From the NCBI RefSeq assembly GCF_036971445.1, contig NC_091469.1, positions 218,798,001 through 218,862,000 on the forward strand: DNA of 64,000 nucleotides, read 5' to 3'. Made by a program: the position numbers and the translations under genes. Below are positions 6,473-60,503 of this stretch, in pieces; position 1 is the first letter of the stretch; every line of letters begins with the position of its first letter. The notes under the pieces were generated by a model that was given only the letters and a program-made list of their open reading frames with translations, did no database searches and had not been told where the DNA came from. The DNA is from Narcine bancroftii (lineage: Eukaryota).

Positions 6473-7855
6473 CTTTGAAATTGAATGCTCATGTAGATAG
6501 GGTGATGAAGGAGGCTTTTGGTATGCTGGCCTTTATAAATCAAAGCATAGAATATAGGAGCTGGGAGATGATTTTGAGACTGTTCAAGGCATTGGTGAGG
6601 AGGCCAAATTTGGAATACTGTGTGCAGTTCTGGTCTCCAAATTATAGGAAGGATATCAATAAGGTAGAGAGGATGCAGGGAAGATTTACTCAAACGTTGC
6701 CTGGATTGCAGTCTCTAGAATACAAAGAAAAATTGAGTAGACAAGGTCTTTATTCATTGGAGCATAGAAGGTTGAGGGGGGATTTAATAAAGGTATATAA
6801 AATTATATACCACCTGAAGAAACACACAAAGATCAGCGTGTACAGAGCCGTTGTCATACCCATGCTCCTGTTCGGCTCCGAATCATGGGTCCTCTACCGG
6901 CATCACCTACGGCTCCTAGAACGCTTCCATCAGCGCTGACTCCGCTCCATCCTCAACATTCATTGGAATGACTTTATCACCAACATCGAAATACTCAAGC
7001 TGGCAGGGTCTGCAAGCATCGAATCCATGCTGCTGAAGACCCAACTGCGCTGGGTGGGTCACGTCTCCAGAATGGAGGACCATCGCCTTCCCAAGATCGT
7101 GTTATATGGCAAGCTCTCCACTGGCCACTGAGACAGAGGCGCACCAAAGAAGAGGTACAAGGACTGCTTAAAGAAATCTCTTGGTGCCTGCCACATTGAC
7201 CACTGCCAGTGGGCTGATATCGCCTCAAACCGTGCATCTTGGTGCCTCACAGTTCGATGGGCTGCAACCTCCTTTGAAGAAGACCGCAGAGCCCACCTCA
7301 CTGACAAAAGAAAAAGGAGGAAAAACCCAACACCCAACCCCATCCCACCAATTTTCCCTTGCAACCGCTGCAACCGTGCCTGCCTGTCCCGCATCGGACT
7401 TGTCAGTCACCAACGAGCCTGCAGCAGACGTGGACATACCCCTCCATAAATCTTCATCCGTGAAGCCAAGCCAAAGAAGAAAATAAAATATAAAATCATC
7501 AGTGGGATAGACAGAGTAGATGGGAAAAGGCTCTTCCCCTTGAGGGTAGGAGAGATTGGAATGAGGGGTTATGAGTTAAGGGTTAGGGGGCAAAAGTTTA
7601 GAAGTAACATGAGAGGGAACTTCCTCACTCAGAGAATAGTGGCTGAGTGGAATGACCTTCCAGAAGAGATGGTTGCAGCAGGGTCAATTTTGTCATTTAA
7701 GAGAAGGTTGGATAAGTGCATGGATGTGAGGGGATTGGAGGTTTATTGTCAGGGAGTGGGTAGGTGAGACTATAGGAGATCACTTAAACTCGGTGAGGAC
7801 TAGAGGGGTCGAGATGGCCTGTATCCATACTGTAATTGTTGTATGTTTATATGGT
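6473..7855 (+). mobile_element. 5'-truncated CR1 (HER1-like) LINE interrupted by an RTE
   Basis: [29 protein letters not shown]...[13 protein letters not shown], which resumes after 7496 (FTQRIVAEWNDLPEE). Confidence 0.85.
6804..7487 (+). mobile_element. RTE-clade LINE, 5'-truncated, subfamily B
   Basis: Near-identical to the 3' end of 21221-23243. 9-bp TSD ATATAAAAT at 6795-6803 and 7488-7496. Confidence 0.92.
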
Positions 7856-13054: not shown

Positions 13055-14339
13055 TTCTTCTTTGGCTTGGCTTCGCGGAAGAAGATTTATGGAGGGGGTA
13101 AAAAGTCCACGTCAGCTGCAGGCTTGTTTGTGGCTGACAAGTCCGATGCGGGACAGGCAGACACGATTGCAGCGGTTGCAAGGGAAAATTTGTTGGTTGG
13201 GGTTGGGTGTTGGGTTTTTCCTCCTTTGCCTTTTGTCAGTGAGGTAGGCTCTGCGGTCTTCTTCAAAGGAGGTTGCAGCCCGCCAAACTGTGAGGCGCCA
13301 AGATGCACGGTTTGAGGCGTTATCAGCCCACTGGCGGTGGTCAATGTGGCAGGCACCAAGAGATTTCTTTAGGCAGTCCTTGTACCTTTTCTTTGGTGCA
13401 CCTCTGTCACGGTGGCCAGTGGAGAGCTCGCCATATAACACGATCTTGGGAAGGCGATGGTCCTCCATTCTGGAGACGTGACCCATCCAGCGCAGCTGGA
13501 TCTTCAGCAGCGTGGACTCGATGCTGTCGACCTCTGCCATCTCGAGTACTTCGACGTTAGGGGTGTAAGCGCTCCAATGGATGTTGAGGATGGAGCGGAG
13601 ACAACGCTGGTGGAAGCGTTCTAGGAGCCGTAGGTGGTGCCGGTAGAGGACCCATGATTCGGAGCCGAACAGGAGTGTGGGTATGACGACGGCTCTGTAT
13701 ACGCTTATCTTTGTGAGGTTTTTCAGTTGGTTGTTTTTCCAGACTCTTTTGTGTAGTCTTCCAAAGGCGCTATTTGCCTTGGCGAGACTGTTGTCTATCT
13801 CATTGTCGATCCTTGCATCTGATGAAATGGTGCAGCCGAGATAGGTAAACTGGTTGACAGTTTTGAGTTTTGTGTGCCCGATGGAGATGTGGGGGGGCTG
13901 GTAGTCATGGTGGGGAGCTGGCTGATGGAGGACCTCAGTTTTCTTCAGGCTGACTTCCAGGCCAAACATTTTGGCAGTTTCCGCAAAGCAGGACGTCAAG
14001 CGCTGAAGAGCTGGCTCTGACTGGGCAACTAAAGCGGCATCATCTGCAAAGAGTAGTTCACGGACAAGTTTCTCTTGTGTCTTGGTGTGAGCTTGCAGGC
14101 GCCTCAGATTGAAGAGACTGCCATCCGTGCGGTACCGGATGTAAACAGCGTCTTCATTGTTGGGGTCTTTCATGGCTTGGTTCAGCATCATGCTGAAGAA
14201 GATTGAAAAGAGGGTTGGTGTGAGAACACAGCCTTGCTTCACGCCATTGTTAATGGAGAAGGGTTCAGCGAGCTCATTGCTGTATCTGACCCGACCTTGT
14301 TGGTTTTCGTGCAGTTGGATAATCATGTTGAGGAACTTT
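13055..14339 (-). mobile_element. RTE-clade LINE, 5'-truncated, subfamily A; open 404-aa RT C-terminal frame (13112-14326)
   Basis: GVKQGCVL, LLFADD, QFTYLG and the terminal CxxC...SRIGLVSH zinc knuckle, with a (GAA)n tail. Confidence 0.95.
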
Positions 14340-18110: not shown

Positions 18111-18527
18111 TTGTGTCCGGAGAGCTGCAACTGGTTTAGTCAGAAAATTAAGCAATTTTCTTTTCTCTACATTGATCTACTCCACCTTTTATGACTCAGT
18201 CCTCATGTTTCACCTCCACCTAATTCACCAATCTCACATGGGGCCCCTCCCAGCCCTGTCCTCTCGAGTGGCTTCTCTATTACATTTCTCCAGTATCGAT
18301 AAAGACCTTGAGTTTGAAATGTTAACTATTCTTTTTTTCCTCCCATTTTAACTGTTTGACCCACCGAGTTCCCCTAGGGGAGGCTGCCAAGGAACACCAG
18401 GTGCTGTAGGTTTCTGTGAGGGGAGCTGGACAAAGTGGTGACTCTTAATCTGCCTACGGTAGACAAAAGTTAAAGAATTTCATGTACATTACATTCTAAA
18501 TGTAGTATTACGTGACAATAATGGAAC

Positions 18528-19173
18528 AGAGCCGTTGTCATACCCACACTCCTGTTCGGCTCCGAATCATGGGTCCTCTACCGGCACCACCTACGGCTCC
18601 TAGAACGCATCCACCAGCGTTGTCTCCGCTCCATCCTCAACATCCATTGGAGCGCTTTCATCCCTAACGTCGAAGTACTCGAGATGGCAGAGGTCGACAG
18701 CATCGAGTCCACGCTGCTGAAGATCCAGCTGCGCTGGATGGGTCACGTCTCCAGAATGGAGGACCATCGCCTTCCCAAGATCGTGTTATATGGCGAGCTC
18801 TCCACTGGCCACCATGACAGAGGTGCACCAAAGAAAAGGTACAAGGACTGCCTAAAGAAATCTCTTGGTGCCTGCCACATTGACCACCGCCAGTGGGCTG
18901 ATAACGCCTCAAACCGTGCATCTTGGCGCCTCACAGTTTGGCGGGCAGCAACCTCCTTTGAAGAAGACCGCAGAGCCCACCTCACTGACAAAAGGCAAAG
19001 GAGGAAAAACCCAACACCCAACCCCAACCAACCAATTTTCCCCTGCAACCGTGTCTGCCTGTCCCGCATCGGACTTGTCAGCCACAAACGAGCCTGCAGC
19101 TGACGTGGACTTTTTACCCCCTCCATAAATCTTCGTCCGCAAAGCCAAGCCAAAGATGAGATGAAGAAGAAAG
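18528..19173 (+). mobile_element. RTE-clade LINE, 5'-truncated, subfamily A
   Basis: Near-identical to the other copies. 8-bp TSD AATGGAAC (18520-18527, 19174-19181). Confidence 0.93.
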
Positions 19174-21170: not shown

Positions 21171-23216
21171 TTAACAAATTAGAAATAAAATATTCAATAA
21201 ATAATATTTCTCTATAGCCTTTCTTTCTTTGGCTTGGCTTTGCGGACGAAGATTTATGGAGGGGGTAAAAAGTCCACGCCAGCTGCAGGCTCGTTTGTGG
21301 CTGACAAGTACGATGCGGGACAGGCAGACACGATTGCAGCGGTTGCAGGGGAAAATTGGTTGGTTGGGGTTGGGTGTTGGGTTTTTCCTCCTTTGCCTTT
21401 TGTCAGTGAGGTGGGCTCTGCGGTCTTCTTCAAAGGAGGTTGCTGCCCGCCAAACTGTGAGGCGCAAAGATGCACGGTTTGAGGCGTTATCAGCCCACTG
21501 GCGGTGGTCAATGTGGCAGGCACCAAGAGATTTCTTTAGGCAGTCCTTGTACCTTTTCTTTGGTGCACCTCTGTCACGGTGGCCAGTGGAGAGCTCGCCA
21601 TATAACACGATCTTGGGAAGGCGATGGTCCTCCATTCTGGAGACGTGACCCATCCAGCGCAGCTGGATCTTCAGCAGCGTGGACTCGATGCTGTCGACCT
21701 CTGCCATCTCGAGTACTTCGACGTTAGGGATGTAAGCGCTCCAATGGATGTTGAGGATGGAGCGGAGACAACGCTGGTGGAAGCGTTCTAGGAGCCGTAG
21801 GTGGTGCCGGTAGAGGACCCATGATTCGGAGCCGAACAGGAGTGTGGGTATGACAACGGCTCTGTATACGCTTATCTTTGTGAGGTTTTTCAGTTGGTTG
21901 TTTTTCCAGACTCTTTTGTGTAGTCTTCCAAAGGCGCTATTTGCCTTGGCGAGTCTGTTGTCTATCTCATTGTCGATCCTTGCATCTGATGAAATGGTGC
22001 AGCCGAGATAGGTAAACTGGTTGACCGTTTTGAGTTTTGTGTGCCCGATGGAGATGTGGGGGGGCTGGTAATCATGGTGGGGAGCTGGCTGATGGAGGAC
22101 CTCAGTTTTCTTCAGGCTGACTTCCAGGCCAAACATTTTGGCAGTTTCCGCAAAGCAGGACGTCAAGCGCTGAAGAGCTGGCTCTGAATGGGCAACTAAA
22201 GCGGCATCGTCTGCAAAGAGTAGTTCACGGACAAGTTTCTCTTGTGTCTTGGTGTGAGCTTGCAGGCGCCTCAGATTGAAGAGACTGCCATCCGTGCGGT
22301 ACCGGATGTAAACAGCGTCTTCATTGTTGGGGTCTTTCATGGCTTGGTTCAGCATCATGCTGAAGAAGATTGAAAAGAGGGTTGGTGCGAGAACACAGCC
22401 TTGCTTCACGCCATTGTTAATGGAGAAGGGTTCAGAGAGCTCATTGCTGTATCTGACCCGACCTTGTTGGTTTTCGTGCAGTTGGATGATCATGTTGAGG
22501 AACTTTGGGGGACATCTGATGCGCTCTAGTATTTGCCAAAGCCCTTTCCTGCTCATGGTGTCGAAGGCTTTGGTGAGGTCAACAAAGGTGATGTAGAGTC
22601 CTTTGTTTTGTTCTCTGCACTTTTCTTGGAGCTGTCTGAGGGCAAAGACCATGTCAGTAGTTCCTCTGTTTGCGCGAAAGCCGCACTGTGATTCTGGGAG
22701 AATATTCTCGGCGACACTAGGTATTATTCTATTTAGTAGAATCCTAGCGAAGATTTTGCCTGCAATGGAGAGCAACGTGATTCCCCTGTAGTTTGAGCAG
22801 TCTGATTTCTCGCCTTTGTTTTTGTACAGGGTGATGATGGTGGCATCACGAAGATCCTGAGGCAGTTTACCTTGGTCCCAACAAAGCTTGAAAAACTCAT
22901 GCAGTTTGGCATGCAGAGTTTTGCCGCCAGCCTTCCAGACTTCTGGGGGGATTCCATCCATACCTGCTGCTTTGCCACTTTTCAGTTGTTCGATTGCCTT
23001 ATATGTCTCATCCAGGGTGGGAACCTCATCCAGCTCTAGCCTTAGGGGCTGTTGAGGGAGCTGGAGCAGGGCGGAATCTTGGACTGAGCGGTTGGCACTG
23101 AAAAGAGATTGGAAGTGTTCTGACCATCGGTTGAGGATGGAGATCTTGTCGCTGAGGAGGACTTTGCCGTCTGAGCTGCGCAGCGGGCTTTGGACTTGGG
23201 GTGAGGGGCCGTACAC
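21171..23216 (-). CDS. RTE reverse transcriptase frame (681 aa); lacks the endonuclease and native start, so probably not expressed
   Basis: KAAGMDGIPPE, NYRGITLLS, QCGFR, FVDLTKAFD, GVKQGCVLAP, LLFADD, YLG and a C-terminal CxxC-H motif, with no frameshift. Confidence 0.85.
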   Translation of the reverse strand: MYGPSPQVQSPLRSSDGKVLLSDKISILNRWSEHFQSLFSANRSVQDSALLQLPQQPLRLELDEVPTLDETYKAIEQLKSGKAAGMDGIPPEVWKAGGKTLHAKLHEFFKLCWDQGKLPQDLRDATIITLYKNKGEKSDCSNYRGITLLSIAGKIFARILLNRIIPSVAENILPESQCGFRANRGTTDMVFALRQLQEKCREQNKGLYITFVDLTKAFDTMSRKGLWQILERIRCPPKFLNMIIQLHENQQGRVRYSNELSEPFSINNGVKQGCVLAPTLFSIFFSMMLNQAMKDPNNEDAVYIRYRTDGSLFNLRRLQAHTKTQEKLVRELLFADDAALVAHSEPALQRLTSCFAETAKMFGLEVSLKKTEVLHQPAPHHDYQPPHISIGHTKLKTVNQFTYLGCTISSDARIDNEIDNRLAKANSAFGRLHKRVWKNNQLKNLTKISVYRAVVIPTLLFGSESWVLYRHHLRLLERFHQRCLRSILNIHWSAYIPNVEVLEMAEVDSIESTLLKIQLRWMGHVSRMEDHRLPKIVLYGELSTGHRDRGAPKKRYKDCLKKSLGACHIDHRQWADNASNRASLRLTVWRAATSFEEDRRAHLTDKRQRRKNPTPNPNQPIFPCNRCNRVCLSRIVLVSHKRACSWRGLFTPSINLRPQSQAKERKAIEKYYLLNILFLIC

Positions 23217-26748: not shown

Positions 26749-27050
26749 TGTGGTGATATGACCACCAGCCTACTGCAGGGGGCAATCAATGTACCTGCAG
26801 GAAGACCACCTAAGGGCTGACTCCACCTGGCTTGCTGTCAATCAGCCGACCTGAATAGACCCCAAGGGGGCTGACTCCACCTGGCCGGCTGTCAATCAGC
26901 TGACCCAAACATAGACCTGAACCGGCCCCTCCTAGGCCAGTCACATGGGAGTCACTGAAGCATGAACTGATGTTCAAACATTTATCTGAATAAAGCCTGT
27001 TGTAGTCTTTTGAGTTTTGTGCTTGCTTGCTGTTACCTCAGTGCACCACA
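26749..27050 (+). repeat. G1 5' LTR
   Basis: TGTGGTG...CACCACA termini, AATAAA at 26989-26994; homologous to the solo LTR at 12140-12343. Confidence 0.88.
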
Positions 27051-29208
27051 ATTTATTAAGATAAAATTTAAAAGAATGACCATGGAAAAGTTCCTGTCGA
27101 TCGGGAGCTTGGAGTTTGGAGTTCGATCCTCAACGCCCAGAGGCCCAGGCATGCTTTGAGATCTGGAGGTATGGAATTGAGGTGATCATCCTGATGCAGT
27201 TGGAGGTGATTGACACAAATCAGAAGCAACTCATGGTGCTCCGCACAAAGTTGGGCCCCCAGGCCTTCCAGGCCACCAAGGACTGCACCAACTACAAAAC
27301 AGCGATGGCCATCCTGGAAGCCATGTACAAACCCCCGACGAACGTGGTCTCAGCAGCCAGGTGAGACGGCAGATACATACCTGGGGACCTACAGGAGCTA
27401 TCCTGCCCGTGCCTGACCGAGACTGGGGTGGTCCAAAGGGGGAAGTGGAGTGATTGATCTGAGATGCTTGCATGCGAGGTCTGCGGTCGAGGAGTGCCCG
27501 GCAGAAACTGCTGGAAGATAACATCACCTCACTTACTAGGACTATAGAGGTGGTCCACTCCCTGGAGGCTGCAGCCCTTCATGTCAAAGTCTTCGACTCC
27601 TGACTCCCCCAACACCCAGTCTGGCTGACACAGATGACTGCCATAGCCGAAGTACCGCACATAGAGGAGACCATTGCTGCTGCTGGCACCCCGCGCCCCT
27701 GTTGAGTCCTGGTGTGGGTCAGACAGGCAACCCCACAAAGGCTGCCCGCGAGGAACTCATACTTCTCCCGATGCAGAAAGAAGCTACACAAAAGTGCTCC
27801 AGACTGGCTGGGAGCCCAGTGGCCCAACGCCATCACTCACCCCACCACCTCCGGTTCTGCCACTGACCAGCACTGCTGCAGTGTGCTCCCCTCAGCCGGC
27901 TTCCGCCAGGACTGCTGAAGTCACCTCCACCAGTATGAGAGATGTAACTTCTATCAGTATGGATGATGCAACCACCTGTCCCACAGACAAAGGGGATGCC
28001 TGACCAGGCTGACTCCATGTGCGCCCACAGGACACCACTATCTTGGGCCAGTCAGGCCCTGACGGCATATCAACAGGACAAGATGGTCAACACAGGCATA
28101 TACCAGATCGCCCACTCGACGCACCCAATGGTTGAAAAGGAAACCACTGACCACTACTCGCCTCATCCATTGGGGAGCAACGACTTGGACCCAGAGATGG
28201 TCCTAGCATCTACCACCATAAAAAGGGACATTCATCATGGACTCGGGTGCTCAGTGATGGACATCACTGTCAATGCGAAGGTAACAAAATGCCTGTTTGA
28301 TAGCAGTAGTACTGAGAGCTTCGTACCAATTTTGCTATAGCCTTCGCAGCCCAAGACCACTCTATCAAAGCCCTCAGGCACTGCTTGGCAGATCTGACAG
28401 TGGGGGGGGAGAGAAACATACCATGGGTTCAGGCTCCTGGTTATGCCCAAACTCTGTGCCCCAGTCCTTTTAGGGCTGGATTTCCAGTGCCACCTCCAAA
28501 GCATTACCCTCTCTTTCGGCGGGCCACATCTCCCGCTCACAATCCAGATTGCTCAGCCCAGCAACTACCCCAGTCCACCTGTGGGCTCTCCACGCTGTGA
28601 ATAACCCCCTCTGCCCTCTTATGCCAGATTGCAAGCACATAGCGGCCAGGAGCAGATGCAATTGCACAACCAATCGGGGCTGAAGTGAGGCAGCTTCTGG
28701 CAGAGGGTATCATAGAGCACAGCACCAGCCCCTGGAGATCCCAAGTACTGGTGGTCAAAGGAGGCAGCAAACAGAGGACGGTCATCGACTACAGCCAGAC
28801 CATAAACCAATGCACACAGCTGGGTGCCTACCCCTACCCAGAATAGCCGACATGGTAAATGAGATAACCCACGGTAAGGTATTCTGCACGATTGACCTAA
28901 AGTCAGCCTATCACCAGCTCCCTATTCATACACGAGACAAGCCATACACCGCATTCGAGGCAGATGGGCACCTCTACCAGTTCCACCGAGTTCCGTTTGG
29001 GGTCACTAACAGGGTCTCTGTTTTTCAGCGGGAAATGGACCTCATGGTAGACCTGCACAACCTAAGAGTGACCTTCCTCTACCTGGACAATGTCACCATC
29101 TGCGGCTACGACCAGCAGGACCACGATGACAACCTGGAGAGATTTCTCTGGATGGCCAAGGAGCTGAACCTCACTTGCAATAAAGAGAAGTGTATGTTCA
29201 GCGCCATC
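26749..29208 (+). mobile_element. Gypsy LTR retrotransposon G1, 3'-truncated (5' LTR, gag, protease, RT), decayed
   Basis: gag ATG at ~27082, CLFDSSSTESF protease, and PLPRI, IDLKSAYHQLP, VPFGVTN, YLDNVTICG. Confidence 0.9.
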
Positions 29209-32178: not shown

Positions 32179-32369
32179 TAAAGTGAACTGGGATTCACTG
32201 ATAGTGTGTTGTGCTGATGGCTGGCTCTGCCTCCTAGCTCCGCACCCATCTGCTCATATATAAACCTTGGTTTCCATCCTGAACCCAAAATCCTTCCAAA
32301 GACTACTGTTAGAAGCTAATAAAAGTGTTTGTTCTCCTTCCAGTCGTGAGAGCTTTTATTTGCGCTACA
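32179..32369 (+). repeat. G2 5' LTR
   Basis: Aligns with 36187-36391; TATATAAA at 32257, AATAAA at 32318. Confidence 0.88.
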
Positions 32370-35300
32370 ATTTTATTAGCTTATCCCCTAAATGATGGAA
32401 GTGCTACTCAAGACAGGGATTGCTGTTGATAGACCCTCTAATCCCCTGATGCAGCTAAGGAGTTCACGTACTGGCTGGACTGCTTCCAGACCTACCTGAA
32501 TGCAACCAGGGACTGTCTTCCACGCCAATGAACTCAGGTGGTGTGCACTAGTTTCTAGGGTAGGAACAAAAGGGTATGCAGTCATCAGGGACTGCACTAC
32601 ATATGATGCTGCCATCGAGGCATTGAGGGCTACGTACCTGAAGTCGCAGAACGAGGTCCTAGCGAGGCACTAACTCACTCTACGTCGCCAACATTCAGGA
32701 GAGATCATCAATAACTACCTGCTGGATCTGTGGACGCTTGCCAAGAAGTGCAGGTACGAAGCTGTGTTCATGAGGAAGAACAGATCCAGGACACTCAAGT
32801 CACGTGGTTCCGCTCAAGGGTCATGAGGCAGTGACTGAGTCGGATAAGAAAGATCTGGCTAGCCACATTCAACTGGCCAAATCAATGGAACAGGCCAAGC
32901 TTGAGAATGACAACCTCAAAGCCAGCAAGCTCACTCACCCTGGTGAGACCTTCCAAGGACTGGCTGCTCCCATTACCCCAGCCCTAACTGCTGCCGCTTC
33001 CCGTGCTAGGAAGTGCTTTTTATGAAGAAAGAGCTAGCATTCCTGATCTTGTTCCATGGCTAAAGACTCAGTGTGTTCCAGCTGTGGCAAGGACATTGGG
33101 TGAGGTTTTGCTGCACAAGGGGAAGCCCAGGGATGTCCATGACTTGCACCACTCCCGGATCAGATTCCAGCACCAAGCCGTCTGCCCTGAATTCACCCAA
33201 ACCCACTTGCTGCGCTACACGCTGATGGAGGGTGTCTGAGGAAACAGTGTGAAAAGGCTCAGTGACCATCTTGCTGCAACCCAAATTCAAATTCAGTGCT
33301 ATCATACCCACACAGGGCAATCCAGGATGGTGGGTGCCACTCGAGTGAGGAGTATGGATTCTCCGGGGTCTAAGCCTTAATGGTCCTGGATCAGGACCGA
33401 CCTCACCCGCTCAGCAATTCCATAATGACTGTGAAAGTAAACAGAAATTCCACTAAATGCCTAATCGACACAGGCTCTATTAAAAGCTTCATAGACTCAC
33501 GGACTCTGCGAGAATACAACCTAAAGATGCATCCTTCCAATTATTGCATATTCCTTGCATCTCATTCGCATTTTACACATATTCAATTACATTGTATAGT
33601 ACATCTGTCCTTTGAAGGGGGGAGTTTTGTAAGAAATGCCTGTATGTACTTCATGAATTGTGTGCTCAGGTGTTGTTGGGTCTGGACTTCCTGTGTCATC
33701 TTAAAAGCACGGCCTTGGAGTATTCTGGTCCCCTCCCCCCATAACGGTTTGGAACAGAGGGCCCCTAAAATCAGAACCCACATGCAGCTTCTCCACACTG
33801 AATATCAACCCCCTCCCCCCCCCCCCCAACGTCTCTTCCCGAATCTGTCCTCAGACTGCAAACCTATTGCTACCAAGAGTAGGAGGTACAGCACAGCAGA
33901 CTGAGATTTCATACAGTTTGAGATACAACATCTGCTCGAAGAAGGTATCATTGAACCTAGCACCAGCCCGTGGAGAGCACAAGTGGTAGTGATAAAAGGG
34001 GAAAACAAGTCCAGGACTATACCCAAACTATTAATCGGTACACACTCCAGGACACATAACCCCTCCCTTGAATTTTGGACATGGTGAATGATATTATGCA
34101 GTATCAGGTCTATTCAACCATCAATCTGAAAGCGGCTCATCATCAGCTGCCAATCCATTCTGAGGACCAACAATATATGACATTTGAGGATAACAGTCAT
34201 CTCTATCAATTCCGGAGGGTCCCCTTTGGTATCACTAATGGGGTTTCTAACTTCCAGAGGCAAATGGACAGAATGCTGGATGAGTATTGGTTGAAGGCTA
34301 CCTTCCCCTACCTCAATAATGTCACCATATGTGGCCACACCATGCAAGACCATGACACCAACCTCCAGAGTTTTCTCCATGCGGCGAAAGCCCTGAACCT
34401 CACTTATAACTGACAAGTGCATATTCAGGACAAAATGTCTGGCTATCCTTGGTCACATGATGGAGAATGACATCATTGGCCCCGATCCCGATAGGATGCG
34501 CCTCCTGTTAGAGCTCCCCATTCCCAGAGCCACGAAGGCTTTGAGGAGATCCCTGGGGTTTTTCTCATATTACACCCAGTGGATCCTTCAATACACTGAT
34601 AAGGTTCATCCTCTCTTAAAAGCCACTAACTTCTCCCTCTCAGCTGAAGCCCAAACGGCTTTTAACTACATCTGTAACCACATTGCAAAAGCCGCCATGC
34701 ACGCAGTGGATGAGAATGCATCTTTCCAAATGGAAAGTGATGCTTCGGACATAGCCCTACCAGGAAGGCCGGTTGCTTTTTTTTTTGGTTGGACATTACA
34801 AGGCCACGAGCTCCAGAACCAATCTGTGGAAAAGGAGGCTCAAGCCACTATAGAAGACATGAGGCACTGGAGACACTACCTGACTGGTAGAAGATATACG
34901 CTCCTCACTGACATGCATTCATGTTCAATAATGACAAGAGGGACAAAATCAAGAATGACAAGATTGCCAGGTGGAGAATCGAGCTCTCCACCGACAATTA
35001 TGACATTGCCTATTGGCCAGGAGCCCTTAATGACCCTCCAGATGCCTTATCCAGAGGAAGCTGTGCCTCTGCACACACAGGCCAACTGCGGTCTCTGCAT
35101 AATGAGCTCTGCCATCCAGGGGTTACCGCATGGTTCATTTTGTCAAGGCGTGCAATCTGCCCTACTCCATGGAAGATGTCAGGCAAATGATCAGGTCTTG
35201 CAAGCTGCACTTCTACTGCATCTGATCAAGACATCCAGACCCCTTGGATGGCTCAATGTCAATTTTAAGAGACCTCTCCCCTCCATGAATGGGAACACTT

Positions 35301-41385: not shown

Positions 41386-44300
41386 TTAACCAATGTACAT
41401 GCTGCTAGGAAGGTTGTGTTCTGCTTGGTTGGACTAGCCTGCAGTATCAGAATCTGATGGAAACTGAGCTCTCATCTGCTCTCCACACCTTCTAATAATT
41501 ATCAGAGTATCTCCAATATTCATCCATGCAGAAGGTTGTAATTGTAACTTTCTCGTGAGCAAGGCACGTTGAATTTCAATTACTTAGAGCTGCATTTGAT
41601 CCAATCAACAATGCATCAGCCAGAGGGTAAAGGAAAATTTGTAACAGCCAGCTTTCATTTGCCTGGGCATCTTGATGAAAGAGCTGGCCAATGTGGCCTT
41701 AAATAACACACACCAGCTGCCCACTTGAAATGGGCAATGAGGCAGGGGTAGGCAGAGGAATGTGATTGTATGGCCGACAGAAGAGCCTGTCAAGTCTCCG
41801 ATACGATGGGAAGAGCCTTGGATTGAAAGGTGGGGGGGGGGGAGTGTTGGTGGTGGGAAGCTCTTGGCAGTCAAAGCCCAATATTAACGCCTCAAGGATT
41901 ATTCCTTCTCCTTCCATAATCATAAAGTCAGCTCTGCTGGTCTGATCACATCTTTTGCATGCACCACCACTACATAAAGATGGCATTTCTGCATTCTTGA
42001 TCCATAGCCTTTCAAGCAAACGTGACAGCAGAGTGCTGTCGACCAGATACATAGCCCAAGGATGTTTGGTAGAAAGTGATGCTGAATACTACATACAGAT
42101 GTGAACAATGCAAAACTCTCAGCTCAGTTCCTTTGTAGCCCTTTCACTTCACAATATTCCATCCAGCACCGATTCAAATAGCAATTCCATGTTAAAACCT
42201 GAATTTACTGACCACATTAAGAGGATTGGATATAGCGAATCATTAAAACCTTCCTTCACTTGTTTTGTGACGTGATCAGAAATGTGAAAAACTGTGTCTC
42301 TCCACAAATGCTGCTTGACCGTTTCACATTTAAAAAAAAAATTTCAGATCACCAGAATTCACCAACCTTTGATTTTATTATTTAAATGCAAGATTGAATG
42401 GAATGTGTCTTGGAAATGCCAACTCTATTTTCCAGAGTAAATATAGCTCAAACTTCATCTTGTTGATCATCACTGAGCAAGCAGCCGATCTCTTTAAGGG
42501 CAGCATATACATCAGGTATGCCCGAGTTTTTTTTTCCCCAGGACAAATTGATCATATTGTTGGACTTTATTTACTTCTGGGGTGGGGTGGGGGGGGGAGA
42601 GAGAAAAAGTCTATTATGTGTTTCAGCCAAGGGTACTGCATACAGATTATTGACCTTTGACCTTTATCTATGTAGTAGGCACATCTTGGTTATACTGAAC
42701 CATCAGCCTTCCATGTTGGAGGCAAGGAAAATGTAGACCCAACTAATAGAACCACGCCACCAAATTTCTAAACCAATATGCTTTCATGCTGTGACTTGGT
42801 GGATAAATATAGAATAAAACAACATTTCTCTTCTTTCAACATTGTACAGCCACTGGAGAACACAAATGAGCATAGGCTTTGATGTCTCATCACAAAGGAA
42901 CTGAAATGGCAGGGCTTGGAATCACCAAGGTGCAGACCATACTGCCCATCAAGACCTTGCTGGCTAGATTATAGAACATTTCAGCTCAACCCAGCCTTGC
43001 ATTTTTTTTTCCTTCACGCATCCAACAGACTCGACTATATTTGGCTCCACTGCTCTTGCTAATACATTTTAAAACCGAATCACTTGGTATGCAAAAAAAC
43101 CTCGTATCAGGTTTTTCCCAATCATCTTTATTCTATTTGCCCTTCTTTCTGACCTCTCTGCCAACCTGAACAAAAATCTTTCTGTGTATTCTGGGGTTTC
43201 AATGACTATAAGTTTTCCTGCAGAAGCCTCATTCCCAACAGGAACAGCCCAAGATTATCCAGTCTACCCACAAAACAAAGGTGTCTTATCCGTTAAATTA
43301 TTTTCGCAAGCCTTCAGTTACAGGCTTCAGGTATAACTACTGCTACTGAGACAAAATTCAGGGCTTAAGATAAACCTACCATTATTGTTACGAACCACTA
43401 CATTTAGAATGTAACATGTATGAGTCAAGAATGGAATTTCAGTCTTCCAGAGGGAGATGGACTGAATGGTGGATGACCACCAACTGAAAACCATGTTCCC
43501 CTACCTGGACAACATGACCATCTGTGACCATGACGCCAACCTGCAAAAGTTCCTCCAGACAGCAAAAGCCTAAACTTCACTCATGACCAGAAGAAATGAA
43601 TGTTCTGCACTTCGTATCTGACTATACTAGGGCACGTGGTGGAGAATGGAGTCATTTGACCTTACCCTGAGCGTATGTGGCCCCTGCTGGAACTCCCATT
43701 CCCCCATAACCTCAAGGACCTGAAAAGGTGCCTGGGGTTCTTTTCATACAATGGGCCCCAAATTATGCAGGCAAAGCCCGCTCCCTGGTTAAAAATTAAT
43801 ACTTTTCCCCATCTGCAGAGGCCCAAGTGGCCTTCACTTGCATCAAAGGCAACTTTGCCAAGGTGGCGATGCATGCCATAGACAAATCCATCCCATTTCA
43901 GGTGGAGAGCAATGCGTCTGACTTTGCCCTGGCTGCCACGCTGAACCAGGCAGACAAACCATGGCATTTTTCTCCCATAACCTCCAGGGCCCTAAACTCC
44001 AGCACTCAGTCATTGAAAAAGAGGCCCAGGCCATAATGAAAGCTGTGCGCCACTGGAGGCATTATCTAGCTGGCAAACTGTTCACCCTGCTGACTGACCA
44101 ACATGAGATCGCATTCATGTTCAACAACAAACAGGGGGGATAATTTAAGAATGACAAGAACCAGAACTCTCCACCTACAATTATAAGATTTTTGTACCGG
44201 CCCAGGAAGCCCTGTCACATGGTATCTGCACCAATGTGCAAGCAGATCGCCTCTCAGCCCTACACAGCAGCCTCTGCCACTCCGGGCTCAATCACTTAGT

Positions 44301-45421
44301 GAGAGTCCAAAACCTCCCGTACTCTGTTGAGGACATCAGGGAGCTGACCCACAGCTGCCTGGCCTGCGCACAGTGCAAGCCGCACTTCTACCAGCCAGAG
44401 AAAGCTCACCTGATTGATGCCACCCTCTCCTTCATATGTGCAAGTATGGATTTCAAGGACCCCCTCCCTTCTATGAACCAGAGCGTGCATTTTCTCAAAC
44501 GTTGATGAATGCTCACAATTCCCATTCGCCATCCCCTGCCCAAATACGACTACACCCATTATCTTAAGTCCCTGCGTAACCTCTTCACGGTCTTTGGATT
44601 CCCGAGTCATATTCACATTGACTGGGCGGGTCCTCATTTATGAGCGAGGAGTTGCGCAATACCTACTGGCCAAAGGCATAGCCATGAGCAAGACCACCAG
44701 CTATAACCCCTGAGGGAATGGCCAGGTGGAAAGGGAGAACGGCTCCATTTAGAGGGCAGTTCTCCTGGGCCTCGTCAAAAGGGCTGCCTGTCTCCCAGTG
44801 GCAAGAGGTCCTACCAGAGACATTCCACGCCACCAGGTCCCTCCTCTGTACAGTGAGGAATGTGACCCTGCATGAAAAATTATTTTCCTTCCCCAGGAGA
44901 TCACATTGGGAACAATGCTACTGGTTTGGCTGATGACGCCAGGACCTGTGCTACTCTGGAGACACACCAGAACCCACAACGCAGACCCCCCCGATCGTGA
45001 AAGTCCACCTCCTCCATGCAAACCCCGAGTATGCCTACATGCAGAACCAGGATGGGCAGAGAGACATTGTCTCTGTCCATGATCTATCTTATACTGGGCA
45101 CCACCCCCAATTGAAAAGCACACTGAACTGACCATGGTTGAATGACCAGCTCCACTCCCCATCCCCAGAACTAGCATAGACACAGTCAAGGATGTGACCC
45201 CACCACCCACCCACCCACTTCCCCAAACCAGCTTCAATTGATTCTATTCTTCCATCTGAATCGCAGCCCGTCAGAGCACTGCCCAGGAGCCTACAGCAAC
45301 ACTGCAGCCAGCACTCCGATGGTCAGTTCGACGGACGAAACCGCTGGACAGGCTAAACAAACTCTAACACTTCACCCCGCCGGATATTATTTCAAGAGAA
45401 GGGGTGAATGTGGTGGAACAT

Positions 45422-48249
45422 TGTGGTGAAAGGCATTTGAACAGATGTATGGACTGGCCAGTCCAAACCTCCCTGACCTTCCTTAACCTCTAGCTTAGCT
45501 CCCCCCTGGATTTCCTAATAAAAGCTGGTGTAGCCAGACTTGCCCCCTCTTGCTCCTGTATCTGGAACCAGGCCAAGTCGTGTATCAGTAATGCTCAAGT
45601 TTTTGGTAATTAAACCTGATTCCATCACATCGAAGTGATGATTGTGTGGTTCACAATTTAATTACCAAAACAAAAGTCATGGAAGCTCAAACAACAGGAC
45701 AAGGTAGCAGCGATCGGGAAGATGCCCAGTTAACCCAGCCACTTGGTGTAGAGGTGGACGTACTGTACCCTTCGGGTCTGCATCAACTCTTCAGCGGGTA
45801 ACAGGAGAGGTTTTCCAGCTGACCAGCCGCTCCCTTCGCGAGGCCGCCGCATGGGACGCAGCCGCTCCCTTCACGAGGCCGCCGCATGGGATGCAGCCGC
45901 TCCCTTCGCGAGGCCGCCTCATGGGACGCAGCCGCTCCCTTCGCGAGGCCGCCGCATGGGACGCAGCCGCTCCCTTCGCGAGGCCGCCGCATGGGACGCA
46001 GCCGCTCCCTTCGCGAGGCCGCCGCATGGGACGCAGCCACTCCCTTCGCGAGGCCGCCGCATGGGACGCAGACATTATTGTGCCATCACAACCTAAGGAA
46101 GGCTGGAGATAAGAACGATTTCCTGTTTGCATCTGTAGACGATTGGGTGTTTTGAATAATTACAGATGGCCGAACATAGGATGAAGCGATGGCCCTGTTG
46201 CAGAAGCAGTACGGAACCCTGACAAACCCAATGTATGTGAGGTACAAATTAATGTCCTAGCATCAAGCCCCTGGGGACCCTTTTGCACAGATCACGCAGG
46301 TGATAAGAGATCTGGTTAGAGCCTGCATGTATACTCTGGTGAGTGCCTCAGTGTATGCCAATTAGCTGTTGCGGGACAGACTGATGACAAACATGCTATC
46401 GACCTACGTCCGTCAAAGACTCCTGGAAAAAGGTAACTGCATGTTGCAAGAAGTAATGGATTTGGGGGGAGGCGATGGAGACTGCGGTGCAAAGCTGTGA
46501 GGCTTACACCCCCAACGGTCGGGCATCTACATGGGTAACTTGGGCGCCACCATGTTGGGATATGGCATTGACGGTAGTGGCCGTCAAGTGCAGGTTCTGC
46601 AGGCTGGCCAGGCACCCCCGGATGTCCTGCTCAGCCAGGAACGCAGTGTGCTTAAATTGCAAAAAAGGGCACTATGCAAAGATGTGCAGGGACAGCCCAC
46701 TGCTAGCAGCACCACGCGTGATTCGAGGGATGGGTAACATCTTTGGGGGAGTGGTCACCAAGATGACGATCACCAACATCATTTTTGGCTTCGGATCAGT
46801 GATCGCTAACTTCACTTTCGGTCCCAGCCATGTGTGAGTACTGGGGGTAGCCATCTTCTGAGGCGCCGAGTCCGACACATTACCATCAGGAATGGTACAA
46901 TGGTGACCCTGAATTGGACCCAACTCTGACCTCCGTGACGCTGGATCAGAACACGCCTCACCAGCTGGCATGATCAATGATCAACATTAAGGTTAATGGC
47001 CATGTCATGGGTTGTTTGTTTGACACAGGAAGCACCAAACGTTTTATCCACCTGGGCTTAATAAAGTGCTGTGCACTGAAGGTGTCTCCGGAAAAATGCC
47101 AAATATCCCTGGCTTGTTAAGCCATGTCTGCAGAGACGTGTGGGTACTGTCAGATAGACTTAAGGGTGCAGGGCAGGGAGTACAGGGATTTTAAAATCAT
47201 GGCAATGCCCTAACTCTGCACACCGGTTATTCTGGGGTTAGACTTCCAGTGTCAGCTGGAAAGTGTAATGATGCATTTTGACAGTCCACACCCCCCATCA
47301 AAGTGCAGAACGAGGAATTTAGCCCAGCCAATGAGAGTAAGGTGGGAAGCATGTGTGGGCTGTCCACCCTTTTGGTCCCTCCACTTATCAGAGAATTGCA
47401 GACCGATAGCCGCCAAAAGCAGGAGATCTAGCGCGGAGGACGCATGTTTTATTAAAACTGAAGTCCAGACGCTGTTGACCTAAGGCATAATTGAGCCCAA
47501 CAACAGCCCCTGGAGAGCGCAGATGTTGGTGGTAAAAGCCGAGGGTGGGGTGGGGGTTGGGTGGGGTGCTGAAGAACTGGATGGCAAGACTGCAGCCAGA
47601 CTGTGGATAGATTTATGTTACCGGATGTCTACCCCCTACCCCGAATTGCCGACATGGTGAACGAGATAGCCCAAAATAGGGCCTTCTCCAACGTAGACCT
47701 CAAGTCGGCATAGGATCAGATCCCAACCCACCCAGAGGACAGGACTAACATGGCTTTTGAAGCTGACAGCTGACTATATCAGTTCTGCAAGGTGCCATTC
47801 AGTCTGAAGAATGGGGTATCTGTGTTGCAAAGGTAGATGGACTGCATGGCAGATGATCTCAAGCTAAAGGCAATGTTCCTGTATTTGGATAACGTCACCA
47901 TATGTGGTCATGACGTGGAGGAACACGATACGGATCTAAGGGAATTCGTCGCCGGGGCAAAAACCCTAAACCTGACGTATAATCAGAAGAAGTGCGTGTT
48001 CCACACTTCACGGCTGGCGATACTAGGGTACATGGTGGAGGGAGGAATCAGGTCCCCAAACCCTGAGAGAATGCGCCCCCTAAGGGAACTACCATTGTCC
48101 TAGAACCTGAAAGCCCTGAAAAGGTGCCTTGGGTTCTTTTATTATTATGCCCAATGGGGCCCCAATTATGCAGACAAGGCCCAGCTATTAGCGAAGTCAA
48201 CAGACATCCACCCCCATCAGCAGAGGCTCATAAAGTGCCTTTCACCACA
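45422..48249 (+). mobile_element. Gypsy G4 (5' LTR 45422-45655, gag, protease, RT) nested in the G3 LTR
   Basis: Perfect TSD AACAT (45417-45421, 48250-48254); CRFC..H..C..C..C..GH gag knuckles, CLFDTGS, YLDN at 47882. Confidence 0.9.
45824..46071. repeat. 35-bp GC-rich minisatellite, 7 copies
   Basis: Unit CAGCCGCTCCCTTCGCGAGGCCGCCGCATGGGACG, head-to-tail with only a few substitutions. Confidence 0.97.
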
Positions 48250-48489
48250 AACATGGTATTGCAGCCATTGTACCGGTTGGCCCGCCCCTGACACTGTAAC
48301 TCCTCCCCCTCCAGGATTCCTAATAAAGGTGGTATCGCCCAATCACCTCCCTCAGTACTGCCGTGGAATCGGGCCAACAGCATGTAAGCTATGACTAAGT
48401 TTGTAGCAATTAAAGCCTATTAACCTCAATGTCTGGTCTGTCAGGTCTAGTTGATAGCACTACAAATGCCCTGGTGAAGCCATTCCAAA

Positions 48490-50738: not shown

Positions 50739-50982
50739 CCAAGGGGTCTAGAGCACTGAAGACTTCCTGATCATATTGGAGATTTGGATCTGGAGCCGAG
50801 GCAAAATTCAAAAGACACTCAATGACTGATTGGACATTCTTTTACTTCTCTTGCTCTCTTACAATAAGGGACATAGGACACACGTAATATTACATGTTCT
50901 GTACTATTACAGGACAGTAAAGGAGTCATGAATATGATTCCCTGAGACAGCAATAGCTTGACCTTTATAGTGCTATTGCACA

Positions 50983-51527
50983 CACCAGTGTTGTCTCCGC
51001 TCCATCCTCAACATTCATTGGAGCGACTTCATCCCTAACATCAAAGTACTCAAGATGGCAGAGGCTGACAGCATCGAATCCATGCTGTTGAAGATCCAAC
51101 TGCGCTGGGTAGGTCACGTCTCCAGAATGGAGGACCATCGCCTTCCCAAGATCGTGTTATATGGCGAGCTCTCCACTGGCCATCGAGTCAGAGGGGCATC
51201 AAAGAAGAGGTACAAGGACTGCCTAAAGAAATCTCTTGGTGCCTGCCACATTGACCACCGCCAGTGGGCTGATATCGCCTCAAACTGTGCATCTTGGCGC
51301 CTCACAGTTCGGTGGGCAGCAATCTTCTTTGAAGAAGACCGCAGAGCCCACCTCACTGACAAAAGACAAAGGAGGAAAAACCCAACACCCAACCCCAACC
51401 AACAAATTTTCCCCTGCAACCGTGTCTGCCTGTCCCGCATCGGACTTGTCAGCCACATACGAGCCTGCAGCTGACGTGGACATTTACCCCTTCATAAATC
51501 TTCGTCCGCGAAGCCAAGCCAAAGAAG
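50983..51527 (+). mobile_element. RTE-clade LINE 3' fragment, subfamily B
   Basis: High identity to the other RTE copies. Confidence 0.92.
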
Positions 51528-56718: not shown

Positions 56719-57712
56719 AAGTGGTTTTCAAACTGCCCCCCTAAACTCACATTCTTCTTCTTCTTTGGCTTGTCTTTGCGGACGAAGATTTATGGAGGGG
56801 TAAATGTCCACGTCAGCTGCAGGCTCATTTGTGGCTGACAAGTTTGATGCGGGACAGGCAGACACGGTTGCAGCGGTTACAGGGGAAAATTGGTTGGTTG
56901 GGGTTGGGTGTTGGGTTTTTCCTCCTTTGTCTTTTGTCAGTGAGGTGGGCTCTGCGGTCTTCTTCAAAGGAGGTTGCTGCCCACCGAACTGTGAGGCGCC
57001 AAGATGCACGGTTTGAGGCGATATCAGCCCACTGGCGGTGGTCAATGTGGCAGGCACCAAGAGATTTCTTTAGGCAGTCCTTGTACCTCTTCTTTGGTGC
57101 ACCTCTGACACGATGGCCAGTGGAGAGCTCGCCATATAACACGATCTTGGGAAGGCGATGGTCCTCCATTCTGGAGATGCGACCTACCCAGCGCAGTTGG
57201 ATCTTCAACAGCGTGGATTCGATGCTGTCGGCCTCTTTCATCTCGAGTACTTCGATGTTAGGGATGAAGTCGCTCCAATGAATGTTGAGGATGGAGCGGA
57301 GACAACGCTGGTGGAAGCGTTCTAGGAGCCGTAGGTGAGGACCCATGATTCGGAGCCGAACAAACTCACATACTATTTTAAGTAATCCCTATGCCATAAG
57401 TGCTCTGTGATTAGTAAGGGATTGCTTAAGGTGGTTTGTGAGTGAGAAGGGAAGATTAAGAACCACTGCTCTAGACCCAATTGTTACTGAAATACTTTGT
57501 TTGAGAAAAATTGTTTTTGGCCTATTTCCTCTGGAGTTATGAAACCGTTCACATAATAAGTCAATTAGGTACGATTAAAACATTGGTTTTCAAATCTTTT
57601 CTTTCCACTCACATACCACCTTAAGCAATCCCTTACAAATCACAGAGCACCTATGGCTTAGGGATCACTTAAGGCGGAATGTGAGTTTAGGGGGGCAGTT
57701 TGAAAACCACTG
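56719..57712. mobile_element. Composite hAT MITE made of two inverted mini-MITEs, interrupted by an RTE
   Basis: Outer TIR AGTGGTTTTCAAACTGCCCCCCTAAACTCACAT / ATGTGAGTTTAGGGGGGCAGTTTGAAAACCACT. Confidence 0.85.
56753..57361 (-). mobile_element. RTE-clade LINE 3' fragment, subfamily B
   Basis: 10-bp TSD AAACTCACAT (56743-56752, 57362-57371) and a (GAA)n tail. Confidence 0.93.
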
Positions 57713-59713: not shown

Positions 59714-59862
59714 TGTAGTGCTATCAATTAAACCCGACAGGCCGGAGTCAAGATTAATAGGCTTTTATCACTATAAACTTGCACTCATAGCTTACATGCT
59801 GTTGGCCTGATTCCAAGGCAGAACTGAGGGAGGGGGATTGGGCGATACAGTGTTCCACCACA
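59714..59862 (-). mobile_element. Gypsy solo LTR of the G3 family, internally deleted
   Basis: The reverse complement starts TGTGGTGGAACA and aligns to 48332-48464. Perfect TSD CCAAC (59709-59713, 59863-59867). Confidence 0.9.
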
Positions 59863-60271: not shown

Positions 60272-60503
60272 TGTGATAGTATGGATACTATCACCAATGT
60301 ATATATTTGTATAAATATTTACATATAGTAGTAGTGATTGGCTGAGAGCTGTAGCCATGCCCACTGGCAGGTCATAAAGGGCTGCTCCTATCCAGACCCA
60401 GGTCAGTCTGGACAGGTTGACCTCGATTTAATACGCGCCAGTCTTTTGCTAATAAAAGCCTTGGTTTGAGTCAACAAGTCTTTGGGTCATTCAATGCGCT
60501 ACA
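60272..60503 (+). mobile_element. Gypsy-type solo LTR
   Basis: TG...GCGCTACA termini, GCTAATAAAAGC as in the G2 LTR; flanks TTCTC/TTCCC. Confidence 0.7.

Follow-up and report, generated by a model that had tools for sequence, protein, structure and literature searches.

A primer-binding site complementary to the element's own long terminal repeat suggests self-priming in a chromodomain-less Ty3/gypsy clade

Within the accessible parts of the literature, Tf1 is the only retrotransposon with long terminal repeats (LTRs) for which self-priming is proven; for its chromovirus relatives and one plant copia lineage it is a prediction. The Tf1 primer is reported to consist of the transcript's initial 11 bases, RNase H cutting between bases 11 and 12 (PMC7175516), while self-priming of Tj1 from S. 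japonicus (PMC4600332) and of the plant elements Tcn1 (gypsy) and TAR (copia) (PMC6317226) was predicted from the LTR's complementarity to the primer-binding site (PBS). Here we describe a PBS of this kind in G4, a Ty3/gypsy element without chromodomain that occupies positions 45422-48249 of a 64-kb stretch of Narcine bancroftii contig NC_091469.1 (the window), and in the clade to which G4 belongs.

As in Tf1/Tf2 of Schizosaccharomyces pombe and the other Tf1/sushi chromoviruses, we find Ty3/gypsy elements with a PBS complementary to their own 5' LTR and without a transfer RNA (tRNA) site. The G4 clade differs in having no chromodomain, its primer end coincides in part with a poly(A)-like hexamer and with a conserved TAAA|RCC, and the predicted primer is about 50-70 nt long with a paired segment that is not formed by the first bases, whereas the Tf1 primer is made up of some 11 bases from the start of the transcript. 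In Tf1 it has been demonstrated that the leader is cleaved and a primer thereby freed, whereas in the G4 clade we infer such cleavage. The clade probably works in the manner of Tf1 self-priming but lies outside the Tf1/sushi group, both by the chromodomain and by the predicted position of the primer. Tj1, Tcn1 and TAR belong to other lineages and hosts, and the accessible portions of those reports describe no mis-copied insertions that map primer ends. The Cigr-1 clade and the Mag lineage are, like the elements described here, animal Ty3/gypsy elements without a chromodomain; Cigr is named in PMC6238403, PMC8556966 and PMC3670739, in their accessible parts without mention of priming.

A primer-binding site that follows the LTR

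Positions 45601-45614 of the 5' LTR and 45657-45670 behind it are exact reverse complements (14/14), as the initial annotation had claimed, and the 14-mer occurs at only these two places in the window, with none expected from 100 shuffles. The LTR-terminal CA (45654-45655) is followed by a single spacer A and then by the site, confirming its position one nucleotide past the LTR end. Folding of 45590-45680, proposed as a check, gave -23 kcal/mol (z -3.25), and only one of 200 shuffled sequences folded equally well. With at most one mismatch, the site has 69 matches in the 3.3-Gb genome. It is the PBS of G4 and complements an LTR segment ending in TAAA|RCC, where the bar marks the predicted cut. 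No tRNA-type PBS, which would begin with TGG to match the CCA 3' end of a tRNA, was present in any of 16 families, all of which have a PBS starting with TTT. A possible TGG site at locus L194 was ruled out, as the true PBS pairs with an LTR piece at the opposite contig end. ARAGORN detected no tRNA gene in the whole window, and Rfam gave no match in 45300-45900.

The U5 stem CATCAC/GTGATG (45623-45640, arms 45623-45628 and 45635-45640), also part of the initial annotation, is present when the G4 copy is folded and is kept in part across the family, with 5 of 6 pairs retained in 25 of 29 other copies, but an alternative 7-bp stem using the same 3' arm is preserved better (6 or 7 of 7 pairs in 29/29). 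The loop of the G4 copy, at 41 nt, is 7 nt shorter than the usual 48 nt, the length seen in all but two of the 30 copies.

For each of five LTR families (G4, G3, G2, G1 and that of the solo LTR at 60272), 30 loci were retrieved, and the pairing occurs in the same register in all five. The queries for G4 and G2 contained the leader, so that these copies were selected for having one, while those for G3 and the 60272 family consisted of the LTR alone. Among the G4 copies the spacer A is found in 29/30, and at least 10 of 13 positions form Watson-Crick pairs in all 30, at least 12 doing so in 25; the G2 copies gave the same pairing counts (30/30 and 25/30). As had been forecast, G3-family copies carry the matching complement (9-13 of 13 positions paired in the five copies with a leader), and a 60272-family leader without complementarity was not encountered, the five copies with a leader pairing at 12-13 of 13 positions. 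LTR ends binned as lacking a leader scored 10 or less in 61 of 65 cases, and the four exceptions were misbinned, being G1 5' copies or a palindrome. A scan of metagenomes yielded 65 loci, 31 of them with a gag start, and 28 of these 31 pair. Within the window, pairing joins 32313-32324 to 32371-32382 in G2 and, with one mismatch, 26981-26994 to 27052-27065 in G1 (features of the window are on the plus strand unless stated otherwise).

The compensatory change between hexamer and leader that had been suggested proved real, both between families and inside one. Across 16 families, 213 of 224 cells are paired compared to 146.8 +/- 6.5 for shuffled partners (maximum 178 in 20,000), a figure that is descriptive and not a probability, given the kinship of the families and an anchor chosen for maximal pairing. 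Pairs at the last three positions are A-T throughout, the partners at positions 4-12 change together, and RCC or a near variant stands on the cut side. Within the family S60a, 40 junctions were picked by a pattern blind to a variable site, from which three palindromes and one copy without an aligned site were dropped. In 29 of the remaining 36, which carry three alleles, the site pairs (T-A 16, G-C 7, C-G 6), compared to 13.8 by permutation, and none of 100,000 permutations reached 29; subfamily descent means that these represent few independent events. G4 had been called an independent instance and it is indeed a separate family, but one of a single clade and not an independent origin. The poly(A) hexamer is part of the pairing in most families, yet what is invariant is TAAA|RCC and no hexamer as such. 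The relatives L181, L183, L184, L186 and L235 pair a non-canonical TTAAAA, TTTAAA, GTTAAA or GATAAA; a canonical AATAAA does occur in L184, but farther downstream and not within the duplex. A second helix often begins at the predicted cut. Judged from sequence, the PBS is a real, clade-wide primer site of non-tRNA type.

The elements are Ty3/gypsy LTR retrotransposons. Elements of the window and full-length relatives have, by Pfam, the order protease, reverse transcriptase (RT), RNase H and integrase between their LTRs, the best solved relative is the Ty3 Gag-Pol (E 6e-107), and TG...CA LTRs, target-site duplications (TSDs) of 5 bp and a purine tract ahead of the 3' LTRs are found. Full-length relatives encode gag and pol in one frame of about 1200 aa. 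A chromodomain at the integrase C-terminus was absent from all four relatives scanned (E 0.01), and none is listed for 66 homologues. Among named RT homologues, those of rays and sharks come closest, followed by damselfly, Trichinella and sea slug; the RTs of the window are 58-66% identical to protein P0017, compared to 25-32% for three gypsy proteins of greater distance. The single reading frame presumably fits Cigr-1 in size and the two CCHC knuckles presumably fit the Gag of Mag, which we take as a lead. There was no relative among 41 pattern matches in viral contigs, and the Atlas look-up returned generic RT clusters only. One clade member, P0014, is filed under the name of a bacterial metagenome-assembled genome and is probably eukaryotic contamination.

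Mis-copied insertions in sister families

A second line of evidence comes from integrated DNAs of sister families in which a copy of the LTR is attached at the PBS. In S60a, three matches have an inverted LTR copy joined at the PBS where gag is expected, and the pattern of an LTR end plus inverted LTR has 277 matches in the genome. S60b, a relative of the solo LTR at 60272-60503, is a very young family with LTRs mostly 94-99% identical to one reference copy. It has 1264 exact LTR-end/PBS junctions; among the first 100 in the list, an inverted LTR copy is attached in 13. We examined 77 S60b junctions, out of 80 loci chosen among 100 places listed. In 62 of the 77, the inverted arm extends to the start of U3, and of those with both ends full, 16 of 21 have identical 5-bp TSDs. 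The other 15 arms end inside the LTR, six of them at LTR positions 137-143, where an initiator-like A is found at position 141, 32 nt downstream of a TATA-like box. Three of these six have one junction in common, and when they are merged the count is 4/13 (p 0.002). No S60b arm ends between positions 81 and 136. Two S60a arms end at a similar length (50-52 nt). Measured from the primer end, such inverted copies break off at 50-56 nt, about 32 nt past the TATA-like box. Comparable inverted-LTR forms are also found in G2 (4 matches) and G1.

Breakpoints cluster at the other end of the putative primer as well. Of 43 partial left junctions, 23 lie at -6 to +9 of TAAAA|GCC, and among chimeras with inverted gag or pol, 18 of 23 break within 9 nt of it; TSDs of the chimeras were identical 5-bp sequences in 11 of 12 checked. 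That chimeras arose by deletion after insertion would accord with the border between arm and loop falling at the predicted cut, but it is unlikely in view of the near-identity of the LTRs to the reference copy, the intact TSDs and the clustering of the junctions. From these sequences, transcription would start where the inverted copies stop and the cut would lie where the chimeras stop: arms halting at the predicted start indicate the 5' end of a primer, and chimeras halting at GCC indicate the 5' end of a template after cutting.

Several insertions (L279, L280, L284, L289, L298 and others in S60b; L079 in G1) are perfect palindromes of about 430 bp, composed of LTR, A and inverted U3-R and flanked by 5-bp TSDs, and would be mistaken for miniature inverted-repeat transposable elements. 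Loci L296, L317, L344, L346 and L347 have a common junction at +17, which appears to be a minus strong-stop strand folded back on itself from the predicted cut.

Proposed self-priming and its alternatives

We consider it likely that these elements prime reverse transcription in a Tf1-like manner, with a capped 5' primer of about 50-70 nt produced by a predicted cut at TAAA|RCC; that one or the other end of the element's own RNA serves as primer, whichever it is, we regard as very probable. The support lies in the geometry, the covariation, the lack of a tRNA-type site and the sister-family integrated DNAs with an LTR copy at the PBS. The 14-nt PBS behind the 5' LTR would pair with the element's own R region, and the leader, thereby folded back, would then be cut at TAAA|RCC, possibly by the element's own RNase H as in Tf1. 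The freed capped 5' piece would prime through its last 12-17 nt, and strand transfer could use the R stretch between the cut and the poly(A) site, a stretch automatically positioned if the primer ends in a poly(A) hexamer. An LTR copy joined via the PBS, one nucleotide from the LTR end, would be the trace of copying a primer that contains LTR sequence. The analogy to Tf1 that had been drawn from G4 alone remains the best explanation, except that the paired segment is not formed by the first bases of the RNA and lies about 40-55 nt past the predicted start. In G4, the putative primer 3' end is the segment 45601-45614, which ends in ATTAAA, and the junctions of the chimeras place the predicted cut between 45614 and 45615. 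The octamer 45516-45523, which can also be read as AATAAA and, in all but one of 28 copies scored, lies 98-100 nt 5' of where the primer ends, is a candidate TATA-like promoter box; from the location of the like box in the sister family, transcription is predicted to start about 30 nt downstream, near 45547. By position, the primer would thus measure about 68 nt in G4, and about 52 nt in S60b. The AATAAA at 45517 was set aside as a poly(A) signal, short of proof, as it matches the position of the TATA-like box of the sister family.

Several points weigh against this proposal. Start, cut, cutter and the priming itself are all deduced, and junction positions are blurred by microhomology. The G4 family itself has no extended junctions among its matches (0 vs 69 normal), the mis-copied insertions coming from the sister families S60, G2 and G1. 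The 62 of 77 arms that reach the start of U3 go beyond what a 5' primer alone supplies and need one extra template jump. Finally, three of the 31 metagenomic loci (L206, L225 and L237) lack the pairing, seven of the 36 S60a copies are mismatched at the variable site, and the comparison with shuffled partners carries the limits given above.

The U3-reaching arms are also what recommends the main rival, in which the RNA's own 3' end is the primer: once the poly(A) tail is lost, the 3' copy of R, as a U3-R with TAAA at its end, would pair with the PBS. These arms are exact copies from U3 to TAAAA, reaching the first base of the LTR as a U3-R primer would give, and in some cases an arm forms the right end of a full element (L374, L375). 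On the other hand, some arms halt at the predicted start, with none ending between 81 and 136, the chimeras stop at the cut and not at the start, which argues for a cleaved 5' template, and U3-reaching arms are expected to be enriched because only those yield an integrase end. We regard 3'-end priming as the sole route as unlikely, and it may act as a side route beside 5' priming; the U3-reaching arms would need either a further jump onto plus-strand DNA or priming by the RNA's 3' copy of R.

In HIV-1, a poly(A) hairpin masks the poly(A) signal of the 5' LTR. If the duplex served such masking here and some other RNA were the primer, it would make sense that most families have AATAAA or ATTAAA at the end of the paired segment and that the partner of this segment is found only behind the 5' LTR. 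Masking as the sole function conflicts with the five loci that pair a non-canonical hexamer, with the AATAAA lying free downstream in L184 and with the LTR copies attached at the PBS, which it leaves unexplained; nor does it need a fixed 1-nt register, and no other primer site is left. We consider it improbable, though the duplex may additionally mask the signal of the 5' LTR in an at most secondary role. Half-tRNA priming is reported to exist in copia lineages (PMC6317226), and a host RNA fragment, a tRNA half or other small RNA, might likewise prime here with the LTR match as a by-product. As the site shifts by family and by allele in step with the LTR, which a host RNA would not do, this is very improbable.

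Tf1-like self-priming from the 5' end, as preferred here, can be taken further, if only tentatively, since the combined picture is on balance doubtful: a widespread animal Ty3/gypsy clade without chromodomain (sharks and rays, an insect, nematodes, a sea slug) would have its own tRNA-free priming, in which a single TAAA|RCC junction ends the primer, is the place of the cut and in many cases also provides the poly(A) signal, priming can proceed from either copy of R, the RNA 3' end included, and errors of the route make up more than one tenth of the LTR-end junctions of a young family, as palindromic or inverted insertions that preserve intermediates of reverse transcription. If self-priming holds, tRNA independence would have arisen again, with another geometry, in an abundant and separate clade of animal gypsy elements whose long primer is cut at the poly(A) hexamer. 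For animal gypsy clades without a chromodomain, the accessible parts of the literature gave no report of self-priming, nor was one found of palindromic integrants like these, including work on Skipper (PMC5006619), PMC3601003, PMC6238403, PMC2774666, PMC8556966, PMC10886601, PMC3670739 and PMC13524379, while Repbase and GyDB, where an earlier note may exist, were outside this scope. Because the mis-copied insertions predict start, cut and primer end from genome sequence alone, with a precision of a few bases, the mechanism can be tested directly. These insertions also contribute a sizeable share of 400-bp palindromes to a genome of vertebrate type, and reading primer identity from aberrant integrants should be usable for any LTR family with an unexplained PBS.

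The G4 element and its surroundings

The 5' LTR of G4 (45422-45655) is 234 nt long, has TG...CA ends and begins at a position common to most family copies, of which 29 further ones were retrieved. This LTR does not, as a correction to the initial reading, start directly behind the polypurine tract; G4 is inserted 13 nt into the 3' LTR of an upstream element, G3 (this LTR spanning 45409-48464), with the TSD AACAT at 45417-45421 and 48250-48254. Behind the PBS, a broken gag-protease-RT reading (45679-48202) with stops and frameshifts terminates within pol, its RT being 59-61% identical to P0017 by tblastn, and the gag contains seven copies of a 35-nt tandem repeat (45789-46106). At its right end G4 has no 3' LTR; in its stead, the start of the element's own LTR is repeated over 14 nt in inverted orientation, on the minus strand (48236-48249). 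G4 itself is thus an aberrant insertion, yet not one diagnostic of the priming route.

G3 (43424-45421) comprises a broken RT-RNase H-integrase region, a polypurine tract and the first 13 nt of its 3' LTR (45409-45421), the remainder of which (48255-48464) was separated by the insertion of G4; the G3 family has the same PBS pairing. A solo LTR of this family on the minus strand (59714-59862) has GATAAA as its hexamer. The solo LTR at 60272-60503 represents family S60, whose relatives supplied the allele covariation and mis-copied insertions. In G2, the U5 (32316-32360) of both LTRs contains a second complement of the hexamer region, possibly an alternative fold competing with the PBS duplex.

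Two more repeat families have three copies each in the window, one at 13058-13395, 21225-21562 and 56759-57096, the other at 6842-7222, 18526-18906 and 50897-51277. Their minus-strand open frames reach 690 aa, and they are probably fragments of long interspersed nuclear elements.
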